DNA from: a virus
Lineage: Duplodnaviria; Caudoviricetes
Length of the DNA: 51,073 nucleotides
IMG/VR virus record: IMGVR_UViG_3300037293_000449
Location: 1-51,073 of that record
Direction: 5' to 3' (one strand)
Shown here: positions 1,416 to 47,864 of the stretch, in pieces
How positions within the stretch are numbered: position 1 is the first letter of the stretch
Layout: each line of letters opens with the position of its first letter
Made by a program: the position numbers and the translations under genes
The notes under the pieces: model-generated
What the model was told of the DNA's origin: nothing
The model's database searches: none
Seen by the model: the letters and a program-made list of their open reading frames with translations, nothing else

Positions 1416-1474
1416 AACTAATTATAACATAGCAGATTATATAGTGTGTAGTTTTTACTCTTTTTGTTATCAAA

Positions 1475-2773
1475 TTATAGCGTATTTATGTGCAGGTCTC
1501 CGATTTCGTTTTGAGCCTTGAAGCCGTTAGTGCCAGGTTTGTGTTTGATGCGAGCCATCACAGTTGCGCCGCTAGCCTTAATTACATCCTGAAGTTCTTC
1601 CATAGGTGTCTTAGTGGCCTTCGCGATCTTCTGGATGGTTGAGTTGCTGATCTTGATTGCCATGTCGCTATTACCATCACCATAAAGTCTATGCCAGAAG
1701 TGCCGCCCGGCATGATCACCCGACATGACTTGAAGTTCCATTAGTACAGATGCGCCACCACTCTTTGTGGGTTTGCTGTTGAATGACTTGAACTTGATCA
1801 TTGCGTCGTGGGTTGGCATTGCTTCCGTCGATTCCGACTTTTTTACGACAATAGTGGTATCGACCTGCTTCTTGAACTTCCTGCGAATTGAGTTGATGTG
1901 GGACTTCGCGAAGATTTGGCATGAACGCCATGCAGCAGCATCTTGTGACTCGCCAGGTCGCGGCCTGTTTCGTGGGTATTGCATGTCGCGGAAGTACGGA
2001 TCGTCTGAGTGTTCAGTGTTGTCGACCTCGAATAACCTCCTGGCGATCTCCTCTTCTGTAGCTGAGGTGATCATTCCGCCGACAATTCGATTGAGTTCGT
2101 AAGAGCGTCCACGGGCTCCGGTATTGCCAGTTGCTTTGCGTGATGCTCCAGGCTTGTACATCATGCTGAGTCCGTAGCTCGACTGCTGAAGCTTCAGCTC
2201 AAGCACTTCGACAGGGTTGCCAGGGTTGTAAAAGCTGATTGCATGAGCAAGGCGATCAGGATGCGCGGTGTAGACGTAGTAGCACTGCGATGGAACCCTC
2301 CAGCAAGGGTCGATAGCGCGAAGGAGTCTGCCATCCAGAAAGTCGTCTAGGGTCTCAAGCATCGCTGCGCAGATCGAATTGTGCTCTTCGTGAAAGTAGG
2401 GTCGGTCAGGAGTGATTACCACACGGAACCTTGGCGCGCTTAGGGTGTGGCTGTGGCTCGTATAGAGGAAGTGCTCAAGACCCAAGTCAAGGAGCGCGTC
2501 CTCGATCTCTTCAAGCGCGATCATGTCGTCGTCATACCCCTCACCAAGTTTCTGGTCGATGTCGAAGATGATCAAAGAAGACGAGATCACATTGAGGTCA
2601 CTGCGCGCAGGGATGTTAAAACTGGCTGGTACGAACGTCATTGCATTCGTTTTCTCGGCCAAAACCTTTGGCTGTTCAAAGTGCTTTTCGAACAGCATTT
2701 TTAATGAGTCAGCTGACTTGTTCGAAACGTAGTTCGTTGAAGCAGTCGTCTGTGTTGCATATCTAATGGTCAT
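1475..2773 (-). CDS. AEP-superfamily primase fused to a C-terminal DUF669-like (SSB-like) domain
   Basis: IIFDID and YTSHSH...PRFRVV primase motifs; C-terminal KPTKSGG..LMELQVMSGDHAGRHFW...NEI resembles DUF669. Confidence 0.65.
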   Translation of the reverse strand: MTIRYATQTTASTNYVSNKSADSLKMLFEKHFEQPKVLAEKTNAMTFVPASFNIPARSDLNVISSSLIIFDIDQKLGEGYDDDMIALEEIEDALLDLGLEHFLYTSHSHTLSAPRFRVVITPDRPYFHEEHNSICAAMLETLDDFLDGRLLRAIDPCWRVPSQCYYVYTAHPDRLAHAISFYNPGNPVEVLELKLQQSSYGLSMMYKPGASRKATGNTGARGRSYELNRIVGGMITSATEEEIARRLFEVDNTEHSDDPYFRDMQYPRNRPRPGESQDAAAWRSCQIFAKSHINSIRRKFKKQVDTTIVVKKSESTEAMPTHDAMIKFKSFNSKPTKSGGASVLMELQVMSGDHAGRHFWHRLYGDGNSDMAIKISNSTIQKIAKATKTPMEELQDVIKASGATVMARIKHKPGTNGFKAQNEIGDLHINTL

Positions 2774-2821
2774 TTGCTCTTTCCTTTTCTTTTGAGGCTC
2801 TCTCTTGCCTCCATGTTCCCA

Positions 2822-2850
2822 GTATTAGAAATGAGCAAATGTTGTTGCAA
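2822..2850 (-). promoter_or_regulatory. Putative sigma70 promoter of the primase gene
   Basis: TTGCAA-17 nt-TAATAC(T) on the minus strand; spacer contains TTTGCTCATTT. Confidence 0.45.
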
Positions 2851-2982
2851 CTACTTTTTTATTTATTTGGGCTGGCGAGAGCTTAGGACGGCTATTGAGT
2901 GTGTGTCTAACGTGTTTCTGCGCTGAGCTCAGCTTCAAGGGGGTTCACAAAAAGTTTTTCTTAGTCATGCTTGGTTTTGAGT

Positions 2983-3043
2983 CACCCCACCTACCTATCG
3001 TCATTTCTTTCTTCTTCTATATAGAGAGCTAGTAGATGGGGTG
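2983..3043. other. Candidate replication origin A (palindrome around an AT-rich core)
   Basis: CACCCCACCTAC...GTAGATGGGGTG (11/12 inverted match) flanking an AT-rich spacer, between the divergent primase and origin-binding helicase genes. Confidence 0.45.
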
Positions 3044-3147
3044 GTGGAACAGTAAAAACACTTGGTTCAGAGAAACGCTTTTGACCTGTCCCTGTAAGAT
3101 GAATGTATACCTCATTTAATTATTTAGTCTATTTTCATCGTGGCATC

Positions 3148-3177
3148 TTGTATCAGTGTTTGCTCATTTTGGATACT
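3148..3177 (+). promoter_or_regulatory. Putative sigma70 promoter of the helicase gene
   Basis: TTGTAT-18 nt-GATACT; spacer contains TTTGCTCATTT. Confidence 0.45.
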
Positions 3178-3224
3178 GACTACATCAGGGGAATGAGAGA
3201 GCCCCTAAATAGAGGAAACACAAT

Positions 3225-5564
3225 ATGAATAATGCAATTTCTACACAATCAGTCATCATCGACAACAACAAAAATGCTTTGGAATCTGCTCTTGAACTTA
3301 GAGAGTACAAAAACACTACCCGCCTGATGTCTATCGATGGCGATGTACTGAACGCTGTCTCAGTAGCTTATAAAACAGCTTCTGGTCTCCACAGCGCCGA
3401 TGCTGGTCAAATCACTCGTTCGATCTACACGATGTCGAAAATCGCAATCGCCCTGATGATCGTGAAAGCTGACAGCAGCGACAAAGCTTTCGACGCAGCA
3501 GCCTTCGAAATCGCTCGTGATGTTTTCGTCTCCGGCAAAACCCAGGATAAGGCCCATGCTCTCGCTGAAGCAACTGGTCGCACCCAGGCTGCTTGCGAAT
3601 CAATGATCAATAGCAAGCTCGAATTCCTCACCAGCAGGATGAACTCAAAAACCAACGCGCTGACCGACACTGGCATCTCTACTGAGACCCCAGAAGCCAT
3701 TCGCGACATCATCCTGGCAGACGGTGGCAAATACCTGATCAGCCTGCCTACCGGCGAGGGCAAGTCGACCATCATCAACGAGCCAATCCTCAAGCAATAC
3801 ATTGCAGCAGGTAAGAAAGTCCTGGTCATCTCCCACAGGCGCTCAATCAACAAAGCCTTGGCTAACATCGACGGTATTGTGAGCTACGACGAGTGCGATC
3901 AACCTGAAGTCCTGCTCAACGCCAAGGGTCTGAAGATCGTCGTTAACTCGCTCAACTCACTCAAGTTCAAACGCTTCATCGCGAGTGTCGACCTGGTGGT
4001 TATCGACGAGGCATCCCAGGTGATCTCCCACGTCCTCGGCGGCGAAGTCAAAAATCGCCAAGCCGTATGGGAAACCCTTAATTTTGTCGTCAAAAACACC
4101 CCGAGCGTCATCATGTCTGACGCTGACATCGACGCACGCTGCGCTGAAATGATCGGGCCTGGCTACAAGCTGTTCAAGAAGCCTGCAGCTCACTCTGGAA
4201 TTACTGTGAAGACCGGTGACATCAACCATGTGCGTGCCCTGGCCGTCGCGTCAGCTTGCAAGACACCGACCCTGATCGCCTGTGACGCAGTGAAAGAAGC
4301 CCTGGCTCTCGCAAAGTCGATTGAAAAGCAAGGTGGGCCAGCAGCGCTCGTAATCACTGCTGACAATGCCTTGTGGCCGGAGCAAGCGGCGTTCATCGCA
4401 AACCCAAACGGCACGAATCACCAAGTCGTCATTTACAGCCCAGTGATCACGTCAGCGCTATCGATCACCTCTGGTCACTTCAAAGCTCACTACGGCGTTT
4501 TTCAGGGGCAGGTCGTGCCAAGTGACGCGATTCAGATGCTTCGTCGTGACCGCACCGCCAAGAGCTTCGTGGTGGGCATTAAGCAGTCGATGTACAGCAA
4601 GTCTGAGGCCGTCGAAGCGACGTACAAGTGCAGCCCGATTGCTCTCGATGATCTCGTTCCACATCTGAAAGCTGACACCTTCGTCCCGGTAGTTTTTATC
4701 CGCGACCCTGACAAATCAGATGAAGAAAATGATGCTGCGATCAATGAGGCTCAGGCTGATGCCAAGAAGGCGTTTGACGCAGCCCAGAGCGCCAAGCTTC
4801 AAAGATTGATCAGCGCTGAGGTTGCGTCCATCAACTTCCGCTTTGTTGAATACGGGCATCGCAAAAACGAGGCATGGCTGCGAGACAACATCCAGTCGGC
4901 ACTTCCAGCAAGCCTGCTCGCACGTGGCTTTGAGGTTGAAGTTCTTGAGCATGACGATGACCTATCTCTGGCCGGATTCAAAGCAGATAGTCAGTCCCGC
5001 AAGGCTGTTAAGCGTGAAGTAGCCAAAGGCCTCAACCACGCCGTCAAGGCTGACCCAGTGACTGCTCAGCGTGTTCAAGAGTTCGGCTCGGTAAATGAAC
5101 AGGAATACTTGGAGGCGTCTCGTGCAAGGGCGATTGAGGTGATGAAGGTATCGGACTTTGATCTGGATGACGCGATGATCTGGGGACATGGCGAAGGTGA
5201 ATCCAAAATCATCAAATTCCGCGAACTGATGAGCACCACTGAAGCCCTTGGTGCAACAGATGATCGCAGCTCGAAAAAGGTAATGTCTCTGCTGAAGCCC
5301 GCGCTTGAAACAATGTCTACCAGCAACGCCTGGTCTGGCATAGAAAGCGTTGCACTGTTCGACAGCCTCAACACCATTCGCACTGACGTGCTGACAGTAG
5401 GCATCAGGATTAGCTCTGCAAAAAGCGATCAAGCCAAGAAGGCGGACATAACGAAGATCTTCAGTCAGTTCGGACTTGTCGTCAAAAAGCACGAGACAAC
5501 GAACAAGCAGTTCTTCTACACCGTTAGCCCGAAATCACTGGCTCAAATGACACGATACATCTGA
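3225..5564 (+). CDS. SF2 helicase, replication origin-binding protein (UL9/CyRepA1-like)
   Basis: Walker A LPTGEGKST, ISHRRS, Walker B VIDEASQ, MSDAD, IYSPVITSALSI, QMLRRDR. Confidence 0.75.
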   Translation: MNNAISTQSVIIDNNKNALESALELREYKNTTRLMSIDGDVLNAVSVAYKTASGLHSADAGQITRSIYTMSKIAIALMIVKADSSDKAFDAAAFEIARDVFVSGKTQDKAHALAEATGRTQAACESMINSKLEFLTSRMNSKTNALTDTGISTETPEAIRDIILADGGKYLISLPTGEGKSTIINEPILKQYIAAGKKVLVISHRRSINKALANIDGIVSYDECDQPEVLLNAKGLKIVVNSLNSLKFKRFIASVDLVVIDEASQVISHVLGGEVKNRQAVWETLNFVVKNTPSVIMSDADIDARCAEMIGPGYKLFKKPAAHSGITVKTGDINHVRALAVASACKTPTLIACDAVKEALALAKSIEKQGGPAALVITADNALWPEQAAFIANPNGTNHQVVIYSPVITSALSITSGHFKAHYGVFQGQVVPSDAIQMLRRDRTAKSFVVGIKQSMYSKSEAVEATYKCSPIALDDLVPHLKADTFVPVVFIRDPDKSDEENDAAINEAQADAKKAFDAAQSAKLQRLISAEVASINFRFVEYGHRKNEAWLRDNIQSALPASLLARGFEVEVLEHDDDLSLAGFKADSQSRKAVKREVAKGLNHAVKADPVTAQRVQEFGSVNEQEYLEASRARAIEVMKVSDFDLDDAMIWGHGEGESKIIKFRELMSTTEALGATDDRSSKKVMSLLKPALETMSTSNAWSGIESVALFDSLNTIRTDVLTVGIRISSAKSDQAKKADITKIFSQFGLVVKKHETTNKQFFYTVSPKSLAQMTRYI

Positions 5565-5698
5565 TGTATCAAGCGCCAAGGAAGGCGCTGCAATATACCC
5601 AATATAAATATTTTGACAAACTTGCTAAGCGCTATTGAACGGCCAAATGCTCATATTTATTATGGAAGGTATAGCAAGAATAAAAAGGAAAAGGCTAT

Positions 5699-6358
5699 AT
5701 GACCGCTTTTATTGATATCTCGCAACATCAAATTGATATGGGGGAAGTTGACGAGGTAAGGGCTTGCCTGTTGAAACCATGGGGGTTTAGGGAGCTCGAC
5801 CGAGGTCTTTTATTTAGCATCGCCCAGACATGCCTGCATGCGCTCCACAAGGTGCCTTGGAATGATTACAACGCACAGCATTACAATGGACGTGTCGTGA
5901 CAGTCGAAGATGTAATTTTCCTTCCTGACCTTCCGCCAGTCCCGAAGCCTTATCGGAGTTGGCCCGAAGCATTCATTATGATTTTTGGCGGTCTGCAGGA
6001 GTGCGAATACGAGCCGAAGGAACAAAAGCTCAGGTACGTCGTTGAGCACACATACCAACCTGACTCTGTTGATCCGAACAACCCGAAGATCGTGTTCGAA
6101 ATCAAAGGTGTCATTCCTACATTGGTAGATGCAAAGAAGTACAGAGCTGTTGCGGAACAGAATGGCGTGCACATTATCTTCATCCTTCAAGAGAAAGGGA
6201 TTATCTGCCCCTGGTCAAGGCCTCGCAAAGATGGCACCAGGATGACCCAAGAGGAATGGATTTCAAAGGAGCGTTTTGAATACTGTTACCAAGGCGAAGA
6301 AGAGCTGTTCAGAGCAACCGACAAGTACAAGAAGCTCGTAGCAACATTCGGAAAGTAA
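5699..6358 (+). CDS. T7 endonuclease I-like PD-(D/E)xK nuclease / junction resolvase
   Basis: HTYQPD...FEIKG...DAKKY...IIFILQ...RKDGTRMTQEEW parallels the T7 gp3 motif order. Confidence 0.65.
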   Translation: MTAFIDISQHQIDMGEVDEVRACLLKPWGFRELDRGLLFSIAQTCLHALHKVPWNDYNAQHYNGRVVTVEDVIFLPDLPPVPKPYRSWPEAFIMIFGGLQECEYEPKEQKLRYVVEHTYQPDSVDPNNPKIVFEIKGVIPTLVDAKKYRAVAEQNGVHIIFILQEKGIICPWSRPRKDGTRMTQEEWISKERFEYCYQGEEELFRATDKYKKLVATFGK

Positions 6359-6390
6359 ACCTGCAACACCAAACATGACGTACAGAACAC

Positions 6391-6415
6391 AAGGGCCACG
6401 ATGGCTCTTTTTTTT
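6391..6415 (+). terminator. Intrinsic terminator
   Basis: AAGGGCCA-CGA-TGGCTCTT followed by a T-run. Confidence 0.7.
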
Positions 6416-6493
6416 GCTTAAATTTTGCGCACAAATAAAGCCTTTATATTAGTGTTACAATGTCTGCATAAGAATAATAATAAAGAGCACGAC

Positions 6494-6988
6494 ATGCGTA
6501 GAATTCTTGGGATTGATCCTGGCAAGAGCGGTGGCCTATCGGTAGTAGATGAGCAGTTTAACTTCATTGCCTGTATGCCTATGCCGGTTGCTTCCATCGA
6601 AAAAATCGAAAGAGTCGACCCTCGCCCTATTTTCGACTTTATAAAACTGCACAAGCCTGATTTAGCTATTGTCGAGCTTGTGGGTTCGAGGCCATGTGAG
6701 GGCGTGAAGTCCGTTTTCAGCTTTGGCGATTCTTACGGCGTCGTCCGCTCTTTGGCTGAAGCTCTCTGTGCAGACGTTCGCTATATCACACCTCAGAAGT
6801 GGAAGAGTTTTCAGGGCCTTATTGGGCTTTCAAAAGATCAAGTTGCAGAAATCGCTTATGAAGTCTTTCGCGTCGAAGATATTTACGGCAAACCCTATAA
6901 GCGTAAGGGCCAGATCAAGCGTAAGACCTGCGACGGGATCTCTGACAGCCTGATGATCGCTAAATACGGCGTCAGGTTTTTGGAGTGA
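6494..6988 (+). CDS. RuvC-like Holliday junction resolvase
   Basis: ILGIDPGKSGG, IVE, SFGDSYG, TPQKWK, DGISDSLMIA; ATG 6494 follows an A-rich leader. Confidence 0.85.
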   Translation: MRRILGIDPGKSGGLSVVDEQFNFIACMPMPVASIEKIERVDPRPIFDFIKLHKPDLAIVELVGSRPCEGVKSVFSFGDSYGVVRSLAEALCADVRYITPQKWKSFQGLIGLSKDQVAEIAYEVFRVEDIYGKPYKRKGQIKRKTCDGISDSLMIAKYGVRFLE

Positions 6989-6991
6989 CCA

Positions 6992-7498
6992 ATGGCGACT
7001 AAGGCGCTCACAAAAAAGATCATCAGTGATCTCGAAAAGTACATCACCCAGACGACCAGCCTGAAGATCGCCTGCGGCTGTGCCGGTGTGCCCTCGTCGA
7101 CGTTTTACGTATGGCAGAAGGCCGCGAAAGAGATCGAGGAAGAAGGCAAAGACGAGTCTGACTTAACCAAAGGGGAAGCTCTCCTGTTGGAATTTTTGGA
7201 GCGCATTGATCTGGCGAAAGCCAAGTCGTGCAAACCAGCTATCGATGCGGTCATGAAAGCGATCAAGGACGGCGATGCAAACCAAGCTGCCAGGTTGCTC
7301 AGCAGACGAATGCCAGAAGAATTTGGCGACTGGAACAGGAAAGAAGTAACGATCCGTCAGGAAGTCACCGAAGAATCCAGCACCGGCATCGCCCTGATCC
7401 CCTCCATGTCCGGCGACAACGACCTAGATCAGCTACTCCAGCAACAGCAATCCGACGCTCATTTGCTCGCAAAAACTAAAACAAGCGAGCTCAGCTAA
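6992..7498 (+). CDS. Probable terminase small subunit
   Basis: N-terminal HTH (ACGCAGVPSSTFYVW), helical body, located upstream of TerL. Confidence 0.65.
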   Translation: MATKALTKKIISDLEKYITQTTSLKIACGCAGVPSSTFYVWQKAAKEIEEEGKDESDLTKGEALLLEFLERIDLAKAKSCKPAIDAVMKAIKDGDANQAARLLSRRMPEEFGDWNRKEVTIRQEVTEESSTGIALIPSMSGDNDLDQLLQQQQSDAHLLAKTKTSELS

Positions 7499-8061
7499 TG
7501 ATCAGTCAACGCACTCCATTTGACTGCGGCATCGCCACGCTAGCCAACGCGCTGGGCATCACCTACGAGCAGTCGCTAGACCTCTATGGCACGGACAAAC
7601 AGCACAACGGCGTAACCATCCAGCAAACCGCATCGATCCTATTCAGCCTTGGCTATGCACCCGTGTATACCGCGCTCCCAGGATTCGTCAAAGCCAGCGG
7701 CATCGAGATGAGCACAGCAAATCCGGACATCCTGGAGAGCTTTGGCCACCCAGCAATCCTGCAAGTCCTAACCCCCTCTGGAGTCGTTCACCAGGTCTTC
7801 TTTGACGGCAAAAACATCCTCGATCCAAGTCCCTCAGTCGACGGCCTTCGAAGCGTCAGCGAGTACGAGTGTGTCGACGCGGTGATCCTCTACAAGCGCT
7901 TCCACACGGGCGGTGTGATCTCCAGCAAGCCAGGAGATGCCATTCCCCAGATCATCAGCACTGACTATCCAGAGCCGCGTAAACGGTTTGTGTTCAAAAA
8001 CAACCAGGCGCTTGTGCGCAAACAGGCTGTTCTGTGTGCGGTACGGGAAGGTGCTTTGTGA
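7498..8061 (+). CDS. C39-like cysteine peptidase
   Basis: Q-x4-DCG (QRTPFDCGIATLA), later HQVFFDG and ILDP motifs of the C39/papain-like fold. Confidence 0.6.
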   Translation: MISQRTPFDCGIATLANALGITYEQSLDLYGTDKQHNGVTIQQTASILFSLGYAPVYTALPGFVKASGIEMSTANPDILESFGHPAILQVLTPSGVVHQVFFDGKNILDPSPSVDGLRSVSEYECVDAVILYKRFHTGGVISSKPGDAIPQIISTDYPEPRKRFVFKNNQALVRKQAVLCAVREGAL

Positions 8062-8098
8062 TCCGTATACGGGGCATTAAGGCCGGAAAGGTGCGCTT

Positions 8099-9634
8099 AT
8101 GAGCTCTTTCGGGAACGTTATGGGCCGTGCCCTGGACTTCGGGAGAGCCATAGCTGCAGCCAGGGTTATCTGGAAGCCAACCAAAGGCTCTCAAGAGATG
8201 TTCCTGATGCTTGGGCAATTGTTGTCACTCGTGATCGAAGTGATGTTCCATGGCGGTCGTGGCATCGGTAAGTCCGAGGTCTTGATCATCGCTTACCTGA
8301 TCCATGTCGGCCAAGGATGGGGCAGCAGCTGGACAGGAGTGATCTTTAAGAAAGAGTACAAGCCACTACGCAATCTCATAGCCACCTCTAGGAAGATCAT
8401 CCCTCGAATTTTCCCTGATGCCGTTTGGAACAAGTCTGAATGCTCATGGACGTTCGCTACCGGCGAGGTGCTGTATTTCGGCCACATCAAGAATATGGAG
8501 GATTACGAAAACAAGTACCACGGTCATGAGTACGCCTTTATCGGCTGGGACGAGCTGGCAACCTGGCGCGACCCTGACGTCTATGAAGCGATGATGTCGA
8601 CCCTGCGTACCGCTTTCATTCCTACCAAGCAGCAACCCAACATGCCACCACTTCAGGTCAGGTCAACCACCAACCCGTTCGGTGCTGGTAAGTGGTGGGT
8701 TTACGAGCGTTTCCTTGAGGGCAAACGGCCCGGCGAGATCACATACAACAAGGATGGCTCCCGTCAAAGGTGTGCAGTCTTCGGCACAATTTTTGAAAAC
8801 ACTTACATAAGCAAGAGCTACATCACGAACTATCTACATCAGATTACCGACCCGGCTCTCAAAGCTGCCTGGCTGCATGGCGATTGGGAAGCTGTCGATA
8901 TGAGTGCGATGTTCGGGCCAGTGTGGTCAGCCGAGAACCTGATTCTTGATCCGTTCGAGATTCCGCGTGCCTGGAAAGTAGATAGGTCATTCGACTTCGG
9001 CCAGTCCACACCTTTCTGCTGCCTGTGGTACGCGGAAGCCAATGGAGAGTCGGTCACTATCAATGGCAAGCAATTCTGCCCGCCGAAGGGGTCACTGATC
9101 GTTGTAGGTGAAGACTACGGCACTGAGATTGACCCTAAGACAGGCAAGCAAACCAAAGCAGATGCTGGCCTTTACCTTCCAGCCAATCAGATCGGGGTAA
9201 GACTCAAGGCCAGAGAAGACAAGCTCCTGACGACCGTGTTTAAGAACCACCAGAAAGTCCAACCTGGCCCCGCAGACAACCAAATTCACAACGGCTCGAA
9301 GGTTGATCAGGGTAATGCACCCACGGTAGCTAAAGAGCTCAAAGCAGCTGGCATGGAGTTCGTCAATTCAGACAAGAGCCCTGGCTCTCGCGTGACCTCG
9401 GCCCAGTTGATGTTCGACAGGCTTCATGCCACGAAAACTCAAGACCCGAGTAAGCCTCATATCTACTTTTTCAAGTCCTGCAAGTTTGCTCTCAAAACCC
9501 TACCTAACTTGCATCGAGACGAAGATCAGCCTGATGCAGTTGGTAAAGGCCCTGATGACCATGCATGGGATGCGCTGGCTTACCGCTTAACTTGGAAACG
9601 CCCAGTAACTTCGATTCAACAAGGCATTCGCTAG
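8099..9634 (+). CDS. terL: Terminase large subunit
   Basis: HGGRGIGKS Walker A, IGWDEL Walker B, TTNP, nuclease DFG and DHAWDALAY. Confidence 0.93.
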   Translation: MSSFGNVMGRALDFGRAIAAARVIWKPTKGSQEMFLMLGQLLSLVIEVMFHGGRGIGKSEVLIIAYLIHVGQGWGSSWTGVIFKKEYKPLRNLIATSRKIIPRIFPDAVWNKSECSWTFATGEVLYFGHIKNMEDYENKYHGHEYAFIGWDELATWRDPDVYEAMMSTLRTAFIPTKQQPNMPPLQVRSTTNPFGAGKWWVYERFLEGKRPGEITYNKDGSRQRCAVFGTIFENTYISKSYITNYLHQITDPALKAAWLHGDWEAVDMSAMFGPVWSAENLILDPFEIPRAWKVDRSFDFGQSTPFCCLWYAEANGESVTINGKQFCPPKGSLIVVGEDYGTEIDPKTGKQTKADAGLYLPANQIGVRLKAREDKLLTTVFKNHQKVQPGPADNQIHNGSKVDQGNAPTVAKELKAAGMEFVNSDKSPGSRVTSAQLMFDRLHATKTQDPSKPHIYFFKSCKFALKTLPNLHRDEDQPDAVGKGPDDHAWDALAYRLTWKRPVTSIQQGIR

Positions 9635-9703
9635 TCTCAGAAGTTTGCCGTCAAACAAAGTACAACAGTTGTAGCCAAATAATAATAAGAATAGGCGCTA
9701 TAT

Positions 9704-11020
9704 ATGTCAGTTAGTCAACGCACTTTGCGCTGCCAGAAATACTATCAAGATCGTGAAATGATTCGTGCTATTCGCGGAGGCACCGAATCCCTGCGTGCTG
9801 CTGGAACTAAATACCTGCCAAGAGAGCCTGGGGAAACTGCTGATTCCTACAAGCGCAGGCTGGCACGATCATTCCTGTCCAATTACACAGACAAAACCGC
9901 TCGGAACTTGGCATCGAAACCCTTCACCAGACCAATCGTTGTTAAGAGCGAGAAGTACCAGGATCTTGCGGATGAGTACATGAAGGCTGTAGACGGTAAG
10001 GGTTCGAACCTTAATGGGTTGTGCTCTACCGCATTTGAAGACGCACTGTGGAACGGATCGTCATTCATTGCGATTGATGCCGCCGTTGATGGTGGTCGGC
10101 CATACGCATACCACCTTAGCGGCGATAACATCCTGGGCTACAAGCTTGATGAAGATGACAGGCTCACTGAAATACGCATCCAAGAGAAAGCCATAGTCGC
10201 AGACGGCCCATGGGGAGAAAAGGAGGTATCTCGCATCAGGGTATTCAAGCGCGACGGTGAGGTCGTAACCTGGTCTCTTTATGATGGTGATGCAGGAAAC
10301 GACGAAGCTATAGTTCTCGATCAACCGTTTGCACTCAAAGAGATTCCTGTGGTTGCGGTGCATTCGTCTGCCGTAGTCTCAAGTGGTGAGCTGTTTGCGA
10401 ATCCACCACTGAAAGACTTGGCGTTCGTGAACGTCCAGCACTTCCAGGAATCGTCTGATCAGTCAAACATCCTGAAGATCGCCAAATGCCCGATTCTATT
10501 TGCGTCAGGCGTGGCGGATGATGCTGAGATCGCTATTGGCTCTGAATATGCGATCAAGGGGGACGTGAATGCCGATCTCAAATACGTTGAACACTCGGGG
10601 GCAGCGATTGGCTCTGGACGTGATTCGCTTAGAGACCTAGAAGCCAAAATGCAGTCCTTTGGCTCGGATCTTCTTGAGAACTCCGGGGCTGTAGAGACTG
10701 CAACCGGGCGAGCCCTAAACGCTGGGGAGAACAACAACAGGATTGCGATGATGGCATTGAATCTGGCGTCAGCGGTCGAAAAGGTGTTTGGCTGGATTGC
10801 ATATTTCAACAAGATCGCTGAGCCTGATTTTCACGTCGACATCAATACCGAGTACGGAATCAACACCTCTGCTGAAGAGTTCACTGCCTTGGCCAACGCA
10901 AGGACGATGGGTGATTTGTCGCAAGAGGACTATCTCCAAGAGCTGAAGCGCCGTGGGTTGCTCAGGAATAATTTTAGCCTTGCTGACAATGCCGATAGGT
11001 TGTCGACAGAACTGGTATAG
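9704..11020 (+). CDS. Portal protein (DUF4055 family)
   Basis: YLPREPGET..SYKRRLARS, PPLKDLAFVNVQHFQESSD, ETAT; directly follows TerL. Confidence 0.88.
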   Translation: MSVSQRTLRCQKYYQDREMIRAIRGGTESLRAAGTKYLPREPGETADSYKRRLARSFLSNYTDKTARNLASKPFTRPIVVKSEKYQDLADEYMKAVDGKGSNLNGLCSTAFEDALWNGSSFIAIDAAVDGGRPYAYHLSGDNILGYKLDEDDRLTEIRIQEKAIVADGPWGEKEVSRIRVFKRDGEVVTWSLYDGDAGNDEAIVLDQPFALKEIPVVAVHSSAVVSSGELFANPPLKDLAFVNVQHFQESSDQSNILKIAKCPILFASGVADDAEIAIGSEYAIKGDVNADLKYVEHSGAAIGSGRDSLRDLEAKMQSFGSDLLENSGAVETATGRALNAGENNNRIAMMALNLASAVEKVFGWIAYFNKIAEPDFHVDINTEYGINTSAEEFTALANARTMGDLSQEDYLQELKRRGLLRNNFSLADNADRLSTELV

Positions 11021-12047: not shown

Positions 12048-12067
12048 GATCGGTTTGAGTACAAACT

Positions 12068-13999: not shown

Positions 14000-14039
14000 A
14001 CAGAAACACCTTTATCGTTATTATTGTTTTGTTGTCAAA

Positions 14040-32820: not shown

Positions 32821-32822
32821 GC

Positions 32823-35597: not shown

Positions 35598-35632
35598 TAA
35601 TATATAACTACTGACTAATAAGAATAAAAACA

Positions 35633-38972: not shown

Positions 38973-39729
38973 ACCAATCGAACTCTTCTTGTTTGAACAC
39001 GGTACGGAAAAGTACGCCTACACATCCGGCAGCAGGCAGCATCTCCACACGGACGGGCTGATCTACAAGCCGCTGAGCCTGAGACGAGGCAAAGTTCAGC
39101 GCACAGCCGAAGACTACAAAAACCAGCTGACTCTCGACATGCCCGGCGACTCACCAGTACCTCTGCTGTTCCGGTCACATTTGCCGTCAAACCACGTCAG
39201 CATCAAGGTTTTTCAGACCCAGCGCGACCTACCAGGCGAGTCGATCAACATCTTCGCTGGGGAGGTCACGAGCGTCACTTGGAACAACTCCATCGCAAGC
39301 CTGGCATGCAACCCCGTCTCCAGGTCTCTGACCCGCCAGGTGCTTCGCTGCGGCTACCAGAGCCAGTGCAATCATCATTTATACGACACACGGTGCGGCC
39401 TCCAAATCCAGGACTGGCAAGAGGATACGACCGTCTCTGCTATCAGGGACAACGGCTTCACCGTAGAAGTAGCCTCAAAGGCCAACGCTGACGACTACTA
39501 CATCACGGGTTTGTTATCAAAGACTGGAAGTGACTTCCGGATGATCACCTCCTGCTCGGAGAGTTCTTTTAAGTTGATGTCGCCGATTGACGGATTGAAA
39601 GTTGGTGATGCTATTCAAGTGGCAAAGGGGTGTGATCACTCGGCTGCGTCGTGTCATTCTTTTGATAACTTCGACAATTTCTTGGGCTTCTTGACGATCC
39701 CGACTGATAACCCGTTTCAAGTTTACTAA
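38929..39729 (+). CDS. Phage BR0599/DUF2163 family tail hub protein
   Basis: CNHHLYDTRCG, GCDHSAASC..FDNFDNFLGFLTIP..NPF. Confidence 0.9.
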   Translation: MLTLQSIQKALSLSRPIELFLFEHGTEKYAYTSGSRQHLHTDGLIYKPLSLRRGKVQRTAEDYKNQLTLDMPGDSPVPLLFRSHLPSNHVSIKVFQTQRDLPGESINIFAGEVTSVTWNNSIASLACNPVSRSLTRQVLRCGYQSQCNHHLYDTRCGLQIQDWQEDTTVSAIRDNGFTVEVASKANADDYYITGLLSKTGSDFRMITSCSESSFKLMSPIDGLKVGDAIQVAKGCDHSAASCHSFDNFDNFLGFLTIPTDNPFQVY

Positions 39730-39762: not shown

Positions 39763-42129
39763 ATGGTTTACTTCATGATGGCCATGATGGTTCTGTCAAT
39801 GTACCTGTCAATCAAGATGCAGAAGAAGCCTGAAAGGCCTAATGCGGCAGGAATTGAAGACTTTAGTTTCCCCTCTGCATCTGAGCGCCCGATTCAGGTA
39901 CTTGCGGGCACCAGGCGCATTTCAGGCCCCAATGTTCTCTGGTACGGCGACCTGCGCACCACTGCGATCAAGACCGTGACTAAAGGGATGTTCAGTTCGA
40001 AAAAGACCGTCACTGGCTACCGATATTACATGGGCGTCCAGCTCGGCATTTGCCATGGCCCTGACGTCCTGTTAAGGGAGATCAAGTTCGGCGATGACGT
40101 CGCGTGGTCAGGTCTGAGCACTGGAGGCCCGATCCAGATCGACAAGCCCGCACTCTTCGGTGGTGACACGAATGGCTCTGGCGGCCTCTCTGGGACGATG
40201 AGGTTTTACCCCGGTGCCTTGACGCAAACCGCGAACGAGTACCTGGTTGGCAAGGTTGGCTCAGATCTCGTGTCTGCCATACGCGGTGTCAGCTACTGCG
40301 TTATGGAGGGCATGTACATCGGGAACTCATCGAGCCCGCAGGCCACGAGCTTTGTGGTCAGCAGGTTCCCGAAATCGCCAGACGACCGCTTCAGCGACTA
40401 CGAACAAATTGGACTCGACGCAAACCCAGCATTTTTTATCTATGAAATGATCACCCACGGACTTTACGGGGCAGACCTCGGCTACTCGTCAATTGACTTG
40501 GACTCGTTCACGTCAGCCGCTAAAACACTCTTTGACGAGGGCCTGGGCATCTCAGCAGTCATTGATTCATCGACAACGGCTGGGGACGTGATCAATGACG
40601 TCAAACGCGTGATCCAGGGGTCATTGCAGACAGATCCTGCAACCGGCGCGCTGAAGCTAAGGCTGATCCGGAACGACTACATCGTCGACGACCTGCCACT
40701 GCTCGATCAGTCGAATATCAAGAACCTCAGCGGCTTCACAAGGGGCTCACTCGACACTGCGATCACTGAAGTGAAGCTCAAGTACACAAGCATCGACGAC
40801 GACTTCACTGAGCGCACAGTCATCGCCCAGAACAATGCCTTACGAATCCACAAGGGTGACAGTGACGGCCAGGTCGTCCAGATGCCCATGATCAGCACCC
40901 GAGAAAGCGCAGCGCAGATCGTGATGAGGGAAATGGCCAGCGCATCGGTTCCCTTGGCAACGTGTACAGCAGAGTGCAATCGAGGCCCAGCACACACTGA
41001 AGTCGGTGACGTAGTGCGTCTGAGCTGGCCAGCCGAAAGCGTCGACAACCTTGTCATGCGCGTGACCGGCGTCGACCTAGGAGCACCTCAAGACGGCTCG
41101 GTACGCCTCACACTCGTCCAGGACGTTTTTGGTGTTTTCATGAGCATTTACGCCGATGGCTCCGAGCGCCAATGGACTAAGCCAACCTTCGACGCCACGG
41201 ACATTAAGCGCTTCGACATCATCGATGCCCCGACAATTTTGACGACAAACCAAACAGCCGGAAGCGTGATGGTCGTGGCTGAGAATCCTGGCGTTGCGCT
41301 GGACTACCAGTTCCAGGTGCGCGGAGGTGTTGATAGCGGTTACGTCGATGCCGGGGCAATGCCTTTCACTCCACTGTTCTCGACTACGAAAGCCTTGGGC
41401 ACTGGTTGGACTGATGTAAGCCTTGTTCTGTCCGGGCCGTCTGCAGAGCTTTCGTCGCACACTCCGGAAGAGGTTCGTCAGGGGCTGGGCTTGATGCTGA
41501 TCGTCAGTGCTCTTGGGAAAGAATGGATCTCGTATCAGAACGCTGTGGCTGGCAATTCAACGACTGTGAATCTTGGTCTGGTAAACCGTGGGCTATTCAA
41601 CACGAAGCCTTTGGCGCACCCAGCAAGAGCCCGCGCATGGGCTGTTTCCGAGGGTTTCGGGGTTACTGATTGGCAGTACGTGAAGAGCGAATCCGTGTCG
41701 CTCAGGATGCTGCCACGGACGCAAACAGGAGTGCTCGATGTCGATGATGCTGTCGTGCATTCGTACAGTGTTGCCGGGGCTAATGTCGCTCCGTGGGTGC
41801 CAGGGCGTGTGCGCGTGAATGGCGTCGAGGGTGGGCAGATTTCGGGGGGCGCTACAGTGACCTGGAGGAAGCGTGATGGGTCGTTGCCTGCAGTTGTATT
41901 CAACGGTGACGACGTGAGTCAGGTGAGTGCTTCGACGTATCAAGTGGTCGTGAAATCGGGGAGCACTGTCGTCAAAACTGTCAGCGGGATTACAGCTGAA
42001 TCCTGGGGATTTTCTGAAGAGACTGCGCTGAACGGCGGGGCTTACTTCGGTTCCCTGACCTTTGAGGTCGTCGCTCAAAAGCCAGGGTTTGCTGATTCAG
42101 CTGTCACCAGAGTCAGCGTAACAAGGTGA
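39763..42129 (+). CDS. Tail tip / central fibre protein
   Basis: GPNVLWYGD, GYRYYMGVQLGICHG, ANPAFFIYE, LRLIRNDY, VGDVVRLSWP, QDVF. Confidence 0.88.
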   Translation: MVYFMMAMMVLSMYLSIKMQKKPERPNAAGIEDFSFPSASERPIQVLAGTRRISGPNVLWYGDLRTTAIKTVTKGMFSSKKTVTGYRYYMGVQLGICHGPDVLLREIKFGDDVAWSGLSTGGPIQIDKPALFGGDTNGSGGLSGTMRFYPGALTQTANEYLVGKVGSDLVSAIRGVSYCVMEGMYIGNSSSPQATSFVVSRFPKSPDDRFSDYEQIGLDANPAFFIYEMITHGLYGADLGYSSIDLDSFTSAAKTLFDEGLGISAVIDSSTTAGDVINDVKRVIQGSLQTDPATGALKLRLIRNDYIVDDLPLLDQSNIKNLSGFTRGSLDTAITEVKLKYTSIDDDFTERTVIAQNNALRIHKGDSDGQVVQMPMISTRESAAQIVMREMASASVPLATCTAECNRGPAHTEVGDVVRLSWPAESVDNLVMRVTGVDLGAPQDGSVRLTLVQDVFGVFMSIYADGSERQWTKPTFDATDIKRFDIIDAPTILTTNQTAGSVMVVAENPGVALDYQFQVRGGVDSGYVDAGAMPFTPLFSTTKALGTGWTDVSLVLSGPSAELSSHTPEEVRQGLGLMLIVSALGKEWISYQNAVAGNSTTVNLGLVNRGLFNTKPLAHPARARAWAVSEGFGVTDWQYVKSESVSLRMLPRTQTGVLDVDDAVVHSYSVAGANVAPWVPGRVRVNGVEGGQISGGATVTWRKRDGSLPAVVFNGDDVSQVSASTYQVVVKSGSTVVKTVSGITAESWGFSEETALNGGAYFGSLTFEVVAQKPGFADSAVTRVSVTR

Positions 42130-44168: not shown

Positions 44169-44343
44169 CTTGAGCTCCGAAATCTCTGTATAAGTCCATT
44201 ATATAAGGGGTTCCAGGCAGTGCAATAGCATGGGCGGGCTATTTGACATCAAACTACCTTCATATAGATTGCATTTATTTATTGAGTGGGCGAGTCCAAT
44301 TCAATATGATGTTTATAAATGAGCCATAAAAAGGAAAATAATA

Positions 44344-45204: not shown

Positions 45205-45503
45205 GACCCGACCTCCACACTTGTTGGCTTCTCATGCAGGAAGGTCAGCGCAAGCAGAGCGTGTATAGAATCAAGCAGCGCATCAGCCTTATCGTCAAAG
45301 CTCAGAATCATGTACTCGTGCCCCTGGACGTCTTTGACGCCAATACCCATGTCATCAATCCAAGCACTGTGTATGTGGAAGGTCTGATGTAACTCACCGT
45401 CAAATTCCTTCCCCTCAATAACTCCATATGTAAGCCCGGCAACATCAATGGCATTACCCTTATGCAAAACATATGCTTCATAAATCAATGCGCAACGAGC
45501 CAT
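45201..45503 (-). CDS. Hypothetical protein
   Basis: 100 aa; GGAGG RBS. Confidence 0.6.
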   Translation of the reverse strand: MARCALIYEAYVLHKGNAIDVAGLTYGVIEGKEFDGELHQTFHIHSAWIDDMGIGVKDVQGHEYMILSFDDKADALLDSIHALLALTFLHEKPTSVEVGS

Positions 45504-45596
45504 TTAACCTCCATTACATATATGCCGATTGTACCGCTTGCAAGGTTTGCCAGCAAACACTAATATCGGGATTGTAGAATTAAGGAGTTGCATGTC

Positions 45597-46256
45597 ATGA
45601 AAAGTTTCAGAAGCATATTAAATGCACAACATGTAGCTCAGTTGTATCTTGAAAATAAGTCGATTAACGGCATGAGTAAGAGAGCTGGGGTGTCAGATGA
45701 ATTGACAAGGTTTGCATTCACTCTGGCACTCCGTGGCGTACATCCGAATAGCCTTGACTCTATTTTTGACTTCAGACTTGAAGACGTTGTCGGTCTCCTG
45801 CTCGCTGATAAAGAGACCACGCAGGATATGAAGGATGAATTCGATGAGTTCAGGGTTGTTTGGCGCAGGCTGCATTGCCGTGAGCGTGATCGGCGGGACG
45901 CGATTTGGCGACTGGAAGCGATAAAGCCAGGTTCAAAAACAGCTGAGCCATTTCTCGAATCTCTTGATGCAATAGCTGAGGCGGACGAGGTAGATCCGAT
46001 TGGGGAGGCCTTTGCTATGGGGATCGACGAGGTCTTCGAGATAGTCCCCGTCACGTCGGTGCCAGGCTGGATAGACTACATCGCGTGCGACGACATTCCA
46101 GAGCCGTGGTGCGAGCGCTTCTCACAAGCTAGCACTGGATCGACGGCTACGATCCGTGGGAGCTATGCGTACGACTGGGAAAAGTTTGTGCGGTGCTGGA
46201 AGGTCGAGATGGATATGATAGCTAAACACCAGTTGGCACTTGGGGAGTCGCTATGA
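45597..46256 (+). CDS. Hypothetical protein
   Basis: AAGGAG RBS; coupled to the exonuclease gene. Confidence 0.6.
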   Translation: MKSFRSILNAQHVAQLYLENKSINGMSKRAGVSDELTRFAFTLALRGVHPNSLDSIFDFRLEDVVGLLLADKETTQDMKDEFDEFRVVWRRLHCRERDRRDAIWRLEAIKPGSKTAEPFLESLDAIAEADEVDPIGEAFAMGIDEVFEIVPVTSVPGWIDYIACDDIPEPWCERFSQASTGSTATIRGSYAYDWEKFVRCWKVEMDMIAKHQLALGESL

Positions 46257-46717
46257 AAATTGTTGTGGACTGCGAATTCACACAGCTCAATGCTACCTCC
46301 AAACTTATTTCCATGGCGCTAGTTGCGGAAGACGGCCAAGAGCTCTACTTCGAGCTTAGCGATAATTACGTGATTGGCGATTGCAGTGATTTTGTTGTTG
46401 AGAAGGTATTACCACAGCTGTCAGGAGGTAGCGACTCAATATCACTGATTGCTGCAAGGCAGGAATTGTTGGCGTTCTTGGCTCGCTTCGATAATGTCGA
46501 AATCATGTCTGACGCGCCCGCATGGGACTGGGAGTTCTTCTGCGATATCGCTTACCACAACGGAAAGTGGCCAGGCAATGCATCCAACAAGCCGCTTAAC
46601 TTGATTGACATGTTTAATAATAAAAATATGCAAGGGGAAGATGCGCCGGAGCTTCCACATCATGCGTTGCTCGACGCTAGATTACTAATGAACTACTACA
46701 AGCGTCTTCTCAAATAG
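46253..46717 (+). CDS. DEDD 3'-5' exoribonuclease (Rv2179c-like)
   Basis: VVDCEFT..LISMALV, SDAPAWDW, HHALLDAR. Confidence 0.8.
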   Translation: MKIVVDCEFTQLNATSKLISMALVAEDGQELYFELSDNYVIGDCSDFVVEKVLPQLSGGSDSISLIAARQELLAFLARFDNVEIMSDAPAWDWEFFCDIAYHNGKWPGNASNKPLNLIDMFNNKNMQGEDAPELPHHALLDARLLMNYYKRLLK

Positions 46718-47864
46718 CTAGCTCTAGTTCGTCGGGAATATTTAATTGCTGTCCAGGTACATACTCAATGTACTTTCGCTTGAGCCTGCACTCCTGAGGC
46801 TTGAATAGCGCGTCAAATATAGCATCGATGAGTTCCAGAATTTCCTTGATCATCTTTTGAACTTCGTAATCCCTTGCTGTGAACTTGATGTAGATTGGCT
46901 TTCTTCTGCGCCCGTTAACTGCGATGAACTCATAGTAGTGGATTCTAATTCTTTCTTGGTCTTCGCTATCTCTTCTTGCAATTTCATCCTGAAGTTGATG
47001 AATGGTTTCTGGATCATAGTGCATTCCTTCTTGTGTAGTTAGTTTATGCCACGTAAGTCTTGAGCGTTTGAGTTGTCTTCCGCTGATGTGTTTGCCGTCA
47101 AACTCGAAGCTGATGCCTTTCGGTTGGCCTTCATCATTGAGCGTCAGTTTGATGTAGACCTTCTGCTTTCTCAGGGCCCTGACGAAGTCGAACATGTCTC
47201 CTTGGATTGCGTTGGTGGCTTCGATAGCGCCTGCAATCTTTGCGATCATCTTGTGCTTGAGCGGGAGGTCACCATCTCTGATCGATGCCTGGAGTTCTGC
47301 GTGAGAGATCGAAACGCCCCAAGTATCCTTAGGCTTTGGGGCTTTGCTCAGGTTGAAGCGATCTTCGATGCCGGACACTGACTCAAGGCTGATCGAGCGT
47401 TCGTTGCTGTCCTTGACCATCGAGAAGTCGTCATTGAGCCGGATGCGATTTGCGACGATGTGGACGTGTTGATGATCCTTGTCCTGGTGCATTACAGCGA
47501 CGTACTGAGTCGTTTCGTCGAAGCCTAGGTCTGTCATGTACTTCGTGACGGCCTGGCGCCACTGTGAGGTTGTTAGAGACTCACCTGGGCGCAAGGACAG
47601 CATGGCGTGGAAGACCGGTTTAATGGCCTTCTCAGAGTCGATGGCGAAGCGCCTGAGCGTCTCAACCTGGTCGAATTCGCGGATCATCTCCGAAAGGTCT
47701 GACTCGTTGCCCTGCAGGACGCCTGGCAGTGGGTCTTTGCTCATAGTGTTGAAGCTGATCGTCCGGATTCCGCTGATCTCATGGTCGTGCTTGGTACAGC
47801 CGAAGATGTAGCGAATGCGGTTCTTAAACGAGCCTGCAGATTTAGGAAAGATCTTTCCAATCAT
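46710..47864 (-). CDS. HUH relaxase (MobA/VirD2, MOBP-like)
   Basis: Motif I GSFKNRIRY, motif II VFHAMLSLRPGE, motif III HQDKDHQHVHIVANRI; intact ORF. Confidence 0.93.
   Translation of the reverse strand: MIGKIFPKSAGSFKNRIRYIFGCTKHDHEISGIRTISFNTMSKDPLPGVLQGNESDLSEMIREFDQVETLRRFAIDSEKAIKPVFHAMLSLRPGESLTTSQWRQAVTKYMTDLGFDETTQYVAVMHQDKDHQHVHIVANRIRLNDDFSMVKDSNERSISLESVSGIEDRFNLSKAPKPKDTWGVSISHAELQASIRDGDLPLKHKMIAKIAGAIEATNAIQGDMFDFVRALRKQKVYIKLTLNDEGQPKGISFEFDGKHISGRQLKRSRLTWHKLTTQEGMHYDPETIHQLQDEIARRDSEDQERIRIHYYEFIAVNGRRRKPIYIKFTARDYEVQKMIKEILELIDAIFDALFKPQECRLKRKYIEYVPGQQLNIPDELELAI

Follow-up and report, generated by a model that had tools for sequence, protein, structure and literature searches.

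What could make the two strands of a single phage genome exchange their composition some thirty times, and do the places where this happens mark the points from which DNA synthesis starts? The question is raised by a complete provirus record of IMG/VR (IMGVR_UViG_3300037293_000449; 51,073 bases, here called the window), which by its gene content, i.e., small and large terminase, portal, major head protein, tape measure and tail proteins, represents a siphovirus-like temperate phage. A 12-base-pair (bp) palindrome of the form TTTG-N4-CAAA recurs along this genome, and at most of its copies the plus strand turns from C/A-rich on the left to G/T-rich on the right. The flip had been noticed by eye in an earlier reading of the letters alone (the sequence-only reading), which took every such site for a local bidirectional start of synthesis that leaves a saw-tooth mutational footprint. 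In the analysis described here all exact copies of the palindrome in the window were studied, together with 35 IMG/VR loci that were reached via the primase-like protein of the phage; four other whole proviruses of the family are referred to as G003–G006.

The palindrome and its distribution

The palindrome, TTTGNNNNCAAA, is present in 33 exact copies between positions 1463 and 47102, against 1.56 expected (100 dinucleotide-preserving shuffles, maximum of 5). Eight of its 12 bp are specified, and the copies conform to a 14-bp palindromic consensus, gTTTG-aCGt-CAAAc, in which the central four bases are largely free and the three bases outside each half-site are also biased. The spacing of the two halves is strict: gaps of 2, 3, 5 and 6 bases, swapped or reversed halves and related palindromes occur 0–1 times each. 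Versions with one mismatch (31 in the window) are not enriched. Exact copies are found both in intergenic DNA and within genes of either strand, where they occupy two of the three reading frames.

In this phage family the sites are spaced more evenly than random positions, with a coefficient of variation of 0.49–0.69, a mean distance of 1.4–1.7 kb and a usual largest gap of 3482 nucleotides (nt). Gaps shorter than 200 nt number four in the window, which equals the random expectation (4.1); the close pairs, whose members stand 75–186 nt apart, are 15800/15887, 31940/32015, 9485/9644 and 7801/7987. Of 459 sites pooled, 107 have another site within 200 nt, and the members of such a pair flip together as one unit (mean +0.16).

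The flip of strand composition at the palindromes

The flip was expressed as delta, that is the keto skew (G+T minus A+C) of the right flank minus that of the left flank, read on the plus strand. The sites and their deltas are as follows (start and end, sequence, remarks).

1463–1474, TTTGTTATCAAA, right after the stop of the primase-polymerase-like gene, delta +0.14
4083–4094, TTTGTCGTCAAA, within the helicase gene, delta +0.06; at third codon positions of the same gene +0.25
6424–6435, TTTGCGCACAAA, delta +0.18
7462–7473, TTTGCTCGCAAA, non-flipping, delta -0.07; a one-mismatch version in G003 and G004
7801–7812, TTTGACGGCAAA, delta +0.20
7987–7998, TTTGTGTTCAAA, delta +0.27; peak of an upward skew jump at 7985
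9485–9496, TTTGCTCTCAAA, delta +0.08
9644–9655, TTTGCCGTCAAA, intergenic, non-flipping, delta -0.05
10328–10339, TTTGCACTCAAA, within the portal gene, delta +0.09; third codon positions of the same gene +0.44
11359–11370, TTTGCTCCCAAA, non-flipping, delta -0.05
12054–12065, TTTGAGTACAAA, intergenic, delta +0.09
14028–14039, TTTGTTGTCAAA, delta +0.02
14650–14661, TTTGCTAACAAA, delta +0.11
15800–15811, TTTGACTTCAAA, 87 nt to the next site, delta +0.08
15887–15898, TTTGCCGTCAAA, delta +0.07
16172–16183, TTTGGAGTCAAA, intergenic, delta +0.07
16860–16871, TTTGTCGTCAAA, within a minus-strand gene, delta +0.17
19001–19012, TTTGAAGTCAAA, non-flipping, delta -0.02
21284–21295, TTTGAATGCAAA, delta +0.35
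23182–23193, TTTGCATTCAAA, delta +0.05
24902–24913, TTTGGAGACAAA, delta +0.18
26904–26915, TTTGACGGCAAA, within the head-morphogenesis gene, delta +0.23; third codon positions of the same gene +0.56
28527–28538, TTTGCCGTCAAA, weak, delta +0.03; absent in G005 and G006
31940–31951, TTTGACGGCAAA, 75 nt to the next site, delta +0.19
32015–32026, TTTGAGCTCAAA, intergenic, delta +0.16
34835–34846, TTTGAAGTCAAA, within the tape-measure gene, delta +0.13; third codon positions of the same gene +0.40
35698–35709, TTTGCCGTCAAA, delta +0.35
39180–39191, TTTGCCGTCAAA, weak, 330 nt from site 39510, delta +0.07
39510–39521, TTTGTTATCAAA, delta +0.22; third codon positions of the same gene +0.65
41238–41249, TTTGACGACAAA, within a tail gene, delta +0.21; third codon positions of the same gene +0.50
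44242–44253, TTTGACATCAAA, divergent intergenic region, delta +0.13
45546–45557, TTTGCCAGCAAA, divergent intergenic region, delta +0.21
47091–47102, TTTGCCGTCAAA, within the relaxase gene, non-flipping, delta -0.05
18164–18175, CTTGAGAACAAA, one-mismatch remnant, an exact site in G003, G004 and G006; upward skew jump of 0.25 at 18182

Delta is positive at 28 of the 33 sites (flank width W=300), with a mean of +0.118; the z score is 6.0–6.2 against random positions (W=300 and 500) and 5.8 against 3000 circular shifts of the whole site set. The six G+T counts per 60 nt from which the sequence-only reading had set out proved exact (23/39, 23/36 and 27/39 across sites 26904, 41238 and 39510), and each pair lies, as stated there, within one open reading frame (ORF; 26544–27500, 39763–42129 and 38929–39729, respectively). 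The further sites at which a flip had been seen, i.e., 7987 (+0.27), 16860 (+0.17), 21284 (+0.35), 24902 (+0.18) and 45546 (+0.21), retain it when measured, and the two that had been called unclear are weak indeed (28527, +0.03; 39180, +0.07). The sequence-only reading knew of about 12 of the 33 sites, and the effect is larger than had been claimed. No dependence of the flip on the central four bases was found, and the one-mismatch versions that are isolated (more than 400 nt from an exact site, n=15) reach a mean delta of only +0.058, with 11 of the 15 positive.

Can the arrangement or the coding content of the genes account for the flip? After the class means of gene strand and codon position were subtracted it was unchanged, with 28–29 of the 33 sites positive at W=200–500 and 26 of 33 at W=100. 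When codon positions were separated (W=300), delta amounted to +0.24 at third positions (26 of 32 sites, z 6.8), +0.08 at first and +0.04 at second positions, so that the flip at third positions is about four times that at the other two, values that depend on gene calls made by a greedy longest-ORF heuristic rather than by a trained gene finder. At four-fold degenerate sites it was +0.265 (26/33, z 5.2). Among the sites flanked on both sides by 200 nt of one and the same gene, 8 of 10 were positive, several of them with values of 0.4–0.65, and 1360 random same-gene positions, taken as a control, gave a mean of -0.005 (standard deviation 0.19). Gene orientation per se leaves the keto skew of third positions in the window near nil (+0.009 and -0.011). 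Since the flip survives the strand, codon-position and same-gene controls, it is not a product of gene strand or amino-acid content; the averaging around motif centres that the sequence-only reading had proposed, with just these two factors controlled, was thus carried out, and the sign change persisted and was strongest at synonymous positions. A flip that is large at third and four-fold degenerate positions and small at first and second ones is the signature of mutation bias filtered by protein selection.

In the averaged profile the skew runs at -0.05 to -0.11 on the left and at +0.02 to +0.09 on the right, switches sign at the motif centre and fades by 600–800 nt. The polarity is that of an origin: the plus strand is C/A-rich to the left and G/T-rich to the right of a site, which means that on both sides the strand that reads 5′-to-3′ away from the site is enriched in G+T. 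Within the motif itself the polarity is reversed relative to the flanks, with TTTG as the left half and CAAA as the right one, and therefore local composition cannot be what creates the motif.

The saw-tooth between neighbouring sites

The course of the skew from one site to the next was followed by setting inter-site intervals of at least 300 nt to unit length and dividing them into ten bins. The third-position skew in the successive bins is 0.161, 0.134, 0.094, 0.044, 0.064, -0.018, -0.016, -0.068, -0.174 and -0.182, i.e., a steady fall that crosses zero midway and to which G-C and T-A skew both contribute. In 27 of 30 intervals G/T-richness is higher before the midpoint than after it, and a replichore-like genome-wide offset is absent. 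When five proviruses were pooled, the zero crossing tracked the midpoint of the interval, and the amplitude beside a site was about 0.02 if the next site stood less than 700 nt away and 0.13–0.16 for longer intervals. The small amplitude in short intervals implies an interaction between neighbours over a range of hundreds of bases, such as start points in competition would show. The onset of the bias lies about 20–40 nt from the motif edge (464 sites from 32 records, many of them homologous). In the reverse test, which started from the skew, an exact site stood 75 nt or less away from 14 of 34 upward jumps and from 0 of 35 downward ones, with 9.5% expected.

Strand-oriented sequence bias that is organised around fixed points is familiar from Chi and from KOPS (FtsK-orienting polar sequences). 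A polar-oligomer system of the Chi or KOPS kind was considered here and rejected, because no strongly oriented oligomer relative to the sites was found: among 2- to 6-mers none is more oriented than base composition predicts (maximum |z| of 3.7 among thousands), and TTTG/CAAA and GTG/CAC are no more polar than base composition would make them. Among the 5- and 6-mers compared, ATAAT-type words were the most polar.

Conservation in related proviruses

The proviruses G003–G006 carry 25–31 sites each and display the same flip, with third-position deltas of 0.17–0.28 and z scores of 5–7. The record of G006 is 88 kb long, and 27 of its 27 sites lie in the phage half, which has 49–51% GC, and none in the adjacent 40 kb of 58–63% GC; the difference between a phage of about 50% GC and neighbouring DNA of 58–63% would fit a long C-to-T pressure. 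In 16 distant loci, whose primase-like proteins are 44–52% identical to that of the window, the same palindrome is still the most enriched one, and the flip is seen at 171 of 186 sites over all positions (z 17), at 137 of 170 for third positions and at 37 of 37 same-gene sites, counts that are not independent trials, as many of these sites have homologues among the others. The rescaled profile of the distant loci falls from +0.10 to -0.19.

Alignable DNA of the window and its relatives is 75–83% identical genome-wide, and the genomes are mosaic. Within it the positions of sites are conserved in 79–96% of cases, compared with 13–33% for the same eight positions of random 12-mers. At 75–83% identity synonymous sites have turned over, and thus the bias must be maintained. 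As judged from these alignments, the motif is a selected, genome-covering feature of the phage family. Sites lost in relatives mostly survive as one-mismatch versions, where the flip persists (e.g., 0.28–0.48). Only 8 sites lie in DNA that could not be aligned with the window, with a positive third-position delta at 5 of 7, too few to serve as independent support, and in a non-homologous block of G004 (12.6–15.5 kb) the sites flip weakly or not at all. Substitutions could be counted at close range in windows of at least 94% identity, which yielded 66 events only.

Homologues of the primase-like protein that carry a source name all come from Pseudomonas, from the putida and fluorescens groups. 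Megablast of positions 1400–9700 against a cultured-phage collection gave zero matches, and tblastn of the primase-like protein against the phage collection gave weak partial matches in 6 records, confined to its OB-fold part. A tail-protein query for the same structural genes joined to another replication module returned only the same family, or relatives at 28–33% identity.

Candidate replication proteins

Which proteins could read the palindrome and start synthesis there? The genes of interest are listed below (coordinates, strand, product).

1475–2773, minus, 432-amino-acid fusion of an N-terminal domain like that of archaeo-eukaryotic primase (AEP) primase-polymerases, a helical middle and an OB-fold C-terminal domain like that of single-stranded DNA-binding protein (SSB); candidate priming enzyme
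3225–5564, plus, 779-amino-acid superfamily 2 (SF2) helicase, similar to origin-binding initiators, divergent from the 432-amino-acid gene; candidate palindrome reader
5699–6358, plus, endonuclease-family protein (phrog_945)
6425–6988, plus, RuvC-like Holliday-junction resolvase
15650–16147, minus, DnaQ-like 3′–5′ exonuclease
46253–46717, plus, RNase H-like protein (phrog_2259)
46710–47864, minus, MobA/VirD2-type relaxase, conserved in the family; candidate nicking enzyme of one alternative weighed below
47861–48154, minus, NikA-like relaxase accessory protein

The replication region thus occupies the left end, where the gene of the 432-amino-acid fusion and the helicase gene are followed by the endonuclease-family gene and the RuvC-like resolvase gene; another polymerase or origin was not found among the genes of the window. 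In the fusion protein the block F70-D71-x-D73-Q74 (FDxDQ) is invariant in 17 sequences, and its DxD may be the catalytic acidic motif of AEP enzymes. The structural model of the protein matched in Foldseek the AEP domain of S-2L PrimPol (E 4e-3, probability 1.00), PrimPol of African swine fever virus (ASFV; E 8e-4) and the polymerase domain of LigD, and its C-terminal part resembles structurally the OB folds of PrgE, SSB and PriB. At the sequence level the domain DUF669 was reached with 20.6 bits, below the cut-off of 21.

The helicase matches the Pfam family Herpes_ori_bp over residues 174–310 with 29.7 bits (cut-off 20). Its model has a mean predicted local distance difference test (pLDDT) score of 83.7, and the top four Foldseek matches are all the origin-binding protein (OBP) of herpes simplex virus 1 (HSV-1) on OriS DNA (9hgi/9hgj; E 1.5e-10 to 1.2e-9), the next match standing at 1e-7. 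Alignment to OBP with VIA-align gave Z 20.4 over 381 residues, and a second VIA alignment gave Z 20.1 over 500 residues that span 133–779, with a root-mean-square deviation of 13.4. The helicase part is 30–34% identical to RepA of phiHAP-1 and VP882, and the CyRepA1 model (NCBIfam NF042913) was matched with 161 bits, below its 200-bit cut-off. PDB sequence searches with the fusion protein and the helicase returned nothing, and in an Atlas search with helicase residues 480–779 the best score was 0.76, below lead level.

Proposed initiation of synthesis at the palindromes

The reading favoured here, to which the evidence leans, is that the palindromes are probably start points of outward DNA synthesis on both strands, served by the HSV-OBP-like helicase and the AEP primase-polymerase/SSB fusion. 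The helicase would recognise the palindrome and open it. The fusion protein would then prime each strand at the outer edge of the 5′-TTTG half-site, and the two new strands would grow apart. On either side the old strand that points 5′-to-3′ away from the site would be displaced, or would serve as lagging-strand template, and in either role would stay single-stranded for a time, during which it would gain T and G and lose C and A through deamination-type damage. Over many rounds of replication such exposure would produce a G/T excess that is highest just outside a site and falls towards the next one, with the sign change midway.

The polarity of priming has a model in NrS-1 polymerase, which recognises 5′-TTTGGTTA-3′ or 5′-GTG-3′ and starts just upstream of the recognition site, as described in PMC8718748. 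The same geometry, applied to 5′-TTTG on each strand of the palindrome, would give divergent synthesis from the outer edges and hence the observed polarity. That TTTG is common to the NrS-1 word and the palindrome may be a coincidence.

Each site could be an origin in its own right; alternatively, the sites could chiefly be places where the lagging strand must be primed, spaced like Okazaki fragments (about 1.4 kb). Since the saw-tooth is symmetric about zero, forks would cross each interval both ways about equally often, and this symmetry is most simply explained by initiation at many sites. The far-reaching version of the proposal is a temperate Pseudomonas siphovirus family whose members replicate from about 25–33 bidirectional origins at even distances, each of them a 12-bp palindrome and one to every ~1.4 kb, with an OBP-like helicase and an AEP primase-polymerase/SSB fusion to fire them; it is offered tentatively, as an idea that we would sooner doubt than assume. 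If it were true, a phage would possess a eukaryote-style multi-origin replicon, with a fork-polarity map written into its synonymous sites as kilobase-scale 'N-domains', from which the origins and their relative strength could be read directly. Even the more general proposal, that the sites are synthesis starts of whatever kind, would mean a new replication architecture for a virus of bacteria and a module of primase-polymerase and OBP-like helicase whose recognition word is readable from the genome. It would also provide a natural system in which the effect of single-strand exposure on mutation acts over a few hundred bases, and a candidate enzyme pair for sequence-addressed priming.

Several points weigh against initiation at the palindromes by these two proteins. 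Initiation is inferred from composition, and the proteins are candidates for the motif by gene content. Among phages we know of no precedent for some 30 origins within 50 kb. The backing for the AEP assignment is modest: the PHROG primase families are matched weakly (3e-7 to 4e-4) and by the N-terminal part of the fusion protein, no AEP or primase-polymerase model of Pfam or NCBIfam is matched at E<=0.01, and the pLDDT of the structural model is 73. Generic SF2 cores match the helicase at Z 19–20, which almost ties the 20.4 of OBP, and in phiHAP-1, which has a RepA with a related helicase domain, no palindrome is both enriched and accompanied by a flip of the skew. Five of the 33 sites do not flip (7462, 9644, 11359, 19001 and 47091); with these, and with the weakness of sites 200–700 nt from a neighbour, the "every site" of the sequence-only reading proves too strong, while the saw-tooth footprint that it described stands. 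The threshold for skew jumps was a chosen one, and at that threshold 20 of the 34 upward jumps lie away from exact sites. Singleton substitutions in eight proviruses (5184 events) fell short of a clear C>T excess on the outward strand, which the proposal predicts: the C>T/G>A ratio was 1.06–1.15 (z <=1.8), a measure weakened by parsimony bias and mosaic recombination; in the same set G>T/C>A was 1.25–1.37, and T>C stood above A>G, partly the wrong direction. The link of the primase-polymerase to the palindromes is circumstantial, and the family also keeps the relaxase with its NikA-like partner, the endonuclease and the RNase H-like gene.

Alternative explanations

How would the same pattern arise if replication started elsewhere? 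The explanation that survives best, although we regard it as unlikely, is that the palindromes serve lagging-strand priming only: the primase would need the motif, which would for that reason be kept on both strands every ~1.4 kb, and the template just beyond a used site would be exposed longest. The even spacing of the sites, with its typical largest gap of 3482 nt, agrees with such a role, and the mean of 1.4–1.7 kb matches the length that Okazaki fragments commonly have in bacteria; from site to site the skew declines in a roughly linear way, the genome has an RNase H-like gene, and AEP primase-polymerases with defined template words are documented. However, one origin or a rolling circle would draw a one-sided saw-tooth (from 0 to plus, or from minus to 0), and the observed one is symmetric genome-wide. 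The amplitude is moreover flat beyond about 700 nt, where a model based on exposure time predicts growth unless the bias saturates, and recognition of single-stranded DNA needs no palindrome.

Still less likely, in our estimate, is nick-primed synthesis. Here the relaxase with its NikA-like partner, or the phrog_945 endonuclease, would nick each strand at the palindrome, the 3′-OH would be extended outward by strand displacement or nick translation, and the displaced strand would acquire the bias; outward extension of this kind would yield exactly the observed polarity. The relaxase domain is well supported (PF03432, 83.1 bits against a cut-off of 24.6), although the NCBIfam TraI/MobA(P) model is reached with 68.7 bits, below its cut-off of 250; the NikA-like gene adjoins it, and the endonuclease-family gene stands within the replication module. 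Of 7 whole relatives 4 have the relaxase, and the other three, which gave no match, are records of 48–78% estimated completeness; the protein also occurs in 5 of 5 distant-clade records at 55–57% identity. Being kept across the relatives and the distant clade, it is as much a core gene as the primase-polymerase. On the other hand, relaxases normally act at one oriT and on one strand, and a 12-bp palindrome with a free centre at about 30 even places is unlike an oriT. Nicking of both strands of a palindrome would break the duplex, a tie between relaxase and motif is absent from all results obtained here, and the lone site inside the relaxase gene (47091) does not flip. Even if the enzyme were a nickase, it would still have to be explained why a palindrome is conserved at even distances and organises the composition of an entire genome.

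A very improbable explanation is selection on the composition of the flanks, for DNA shape, protein spreading or packaging signals, with no mutational footprint involved. The motif is clearly under selection, and the bias of the three bases past each half-site would fit; the compositional bias, however, reaches 500–1000 nt and scales with the distance to the next site, it peaks at synonymous and four-fold degenerate positions, it is a plain mononucleotide shift with no oriented word, and its polarity is opposite to that of the motif halves. Least credible of all is divergent transcription from each palindrome, with TTGAC-like -35 words on both strands and C-to-T gain on the non-template strand, for although its polarity would match and the consensus gTTTGaCGtCAAAc has TTGAC on both strands (in a minority of copies), no conserved -10-like word is seen at 16–19 bp (at positions 12–31 beyond the motif any base occurs in at most 24 of 66 half-sites), no conserved word exists outside the motif plus or minus 3 nt (66 half-sites), the inner four bases are free, the near-nil third-position skew left by gene orientation makes transcription a weak source of skew here, and about 20 antisense starts in one late operon are implausible.

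Relation to known systems

In bacterial chromosomes the strand that reads 5′-to-3′ away from the origin has an excess of G+T, which is strongest at synonymous positions, and there is one origin per replicon. The polarity in the phage is the same, and yet it has about 30 origin-type sign changes in 46 kb. In vertebrate mitochondria, which replicate by strand displacement, the skew of four-fold sites grows with the time spent single-stranded and forms one gradient per genome; in the phage the gradient starts anew at each palindrome, symmetrically on the two strands. The OBP of HSV-1 reads inverted repeats of a palindromic origin. To this protein (UL9/OBP) the helicase of the window is likened by the Herpes_ori_bp match and by its best structural matches, and to RepA of the N15-type phages phiHAP-1 and VP882 and to the CyRepA1 plasmid initiators by sequence similarity of the helicase part; those systems have one or few origins, whereas the phage family has about 30 sites, and primase and helicase are separate genes in this phage, in contrast to the origin-binding helicase systems.

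The closest likeness in shape is with the skew N-domains of the human genome, where the skew jumps upward at initiation sites and then declines linearly, passing zero halfway and ending negative, a pattern that is read as a gradient of fork polarity (PMC3320577). The phage shows the same shape on a scale of about 1.4 kb, compared with about 1 Mb in human, and its borders are an exact 12-bp palindrome, compared with broad initiation zones; the connection with replication is inferred in the case of the phage. Primase-polymerases that start synthesis at defined template words are exemplified by NrS-1 polymerase, pRN1 ORF904 and RSF1010 RepB', the last of which acts on two inverted 40-nt ssi sites (PMC8567376). 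The fusion protein of the window, known from sequence and model, resembles them in its AEP-like structural matches and has an invariant DxD block; it differs in lacking a sequence-level family match and in being fused to an OB-fold domain, and the phage word is a palindrome of eight specified bases in about 30 copies. In the literature searched, which left most subscription journals outside, no report was found of the motif or of a phage genome cut into ~30 kilobase-scale skew domains. Skew jumps at origins and sequence-specific primase-polymerases are known, and the ~30 palindrome-bounded kilobase domains in a phage are new as far as could be found.

Other features of the provirus

The right end of the provirus contains the following features.

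48512–49891, integrase, adjoining a tRNA gene
49965–50049, tRNA-Phe (ARAGORN), 85 nt, anticodon AAA, beside the integrase

For a tRNA-Phe this length and this anticodon are both unusual. No direct repeat of at least 12 nt that could represent attL/attR is shared by 49901–50300 and 1–1600. The genes of the relaxase and the NikA-like protein belong to a tailed prophage, in which they stand between the main body and the integrase, and a relaxase as a core phage gene is unusual.

Near-identical copies of the phage (positions 19001–39000) are present in run contigs of 15 studies, from sponge, salt lake, biofilm, food and drinking water. The public runs with the phage make up 24 rows, all of them Logan contigs, with no RNA run among those listed. 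Over 19001–39000 the contigs of runs X6, X7, X9 and X10 are near-identical to the window, except for mosaic blocks in X9, where blocks of 5–10% divergence stand within otherwise identical sequence and suggest recombination between relatives.

Between 13.7 and 17.9 kb a block of mostly minus-strand genes, which includes a DUF4238 gene (14697–15644) and the DnaQ-like exonuclease gene, interrupts the plus-strand structural genes; relatives lack several of its genes, which gives it the look of a variable cargo region. Finally, a 31-nt A-rich element (AATAATAATAAGAATAGG...) is found in three copies of 71–100% identity (9678–9708, 28943–28973 and 32084–32114), each of which ends at the ATG of a gene, i.e., the portal gene at 9704 and ORFs at 28969 and 32108, and it may be a shared translation or late-expression signal.

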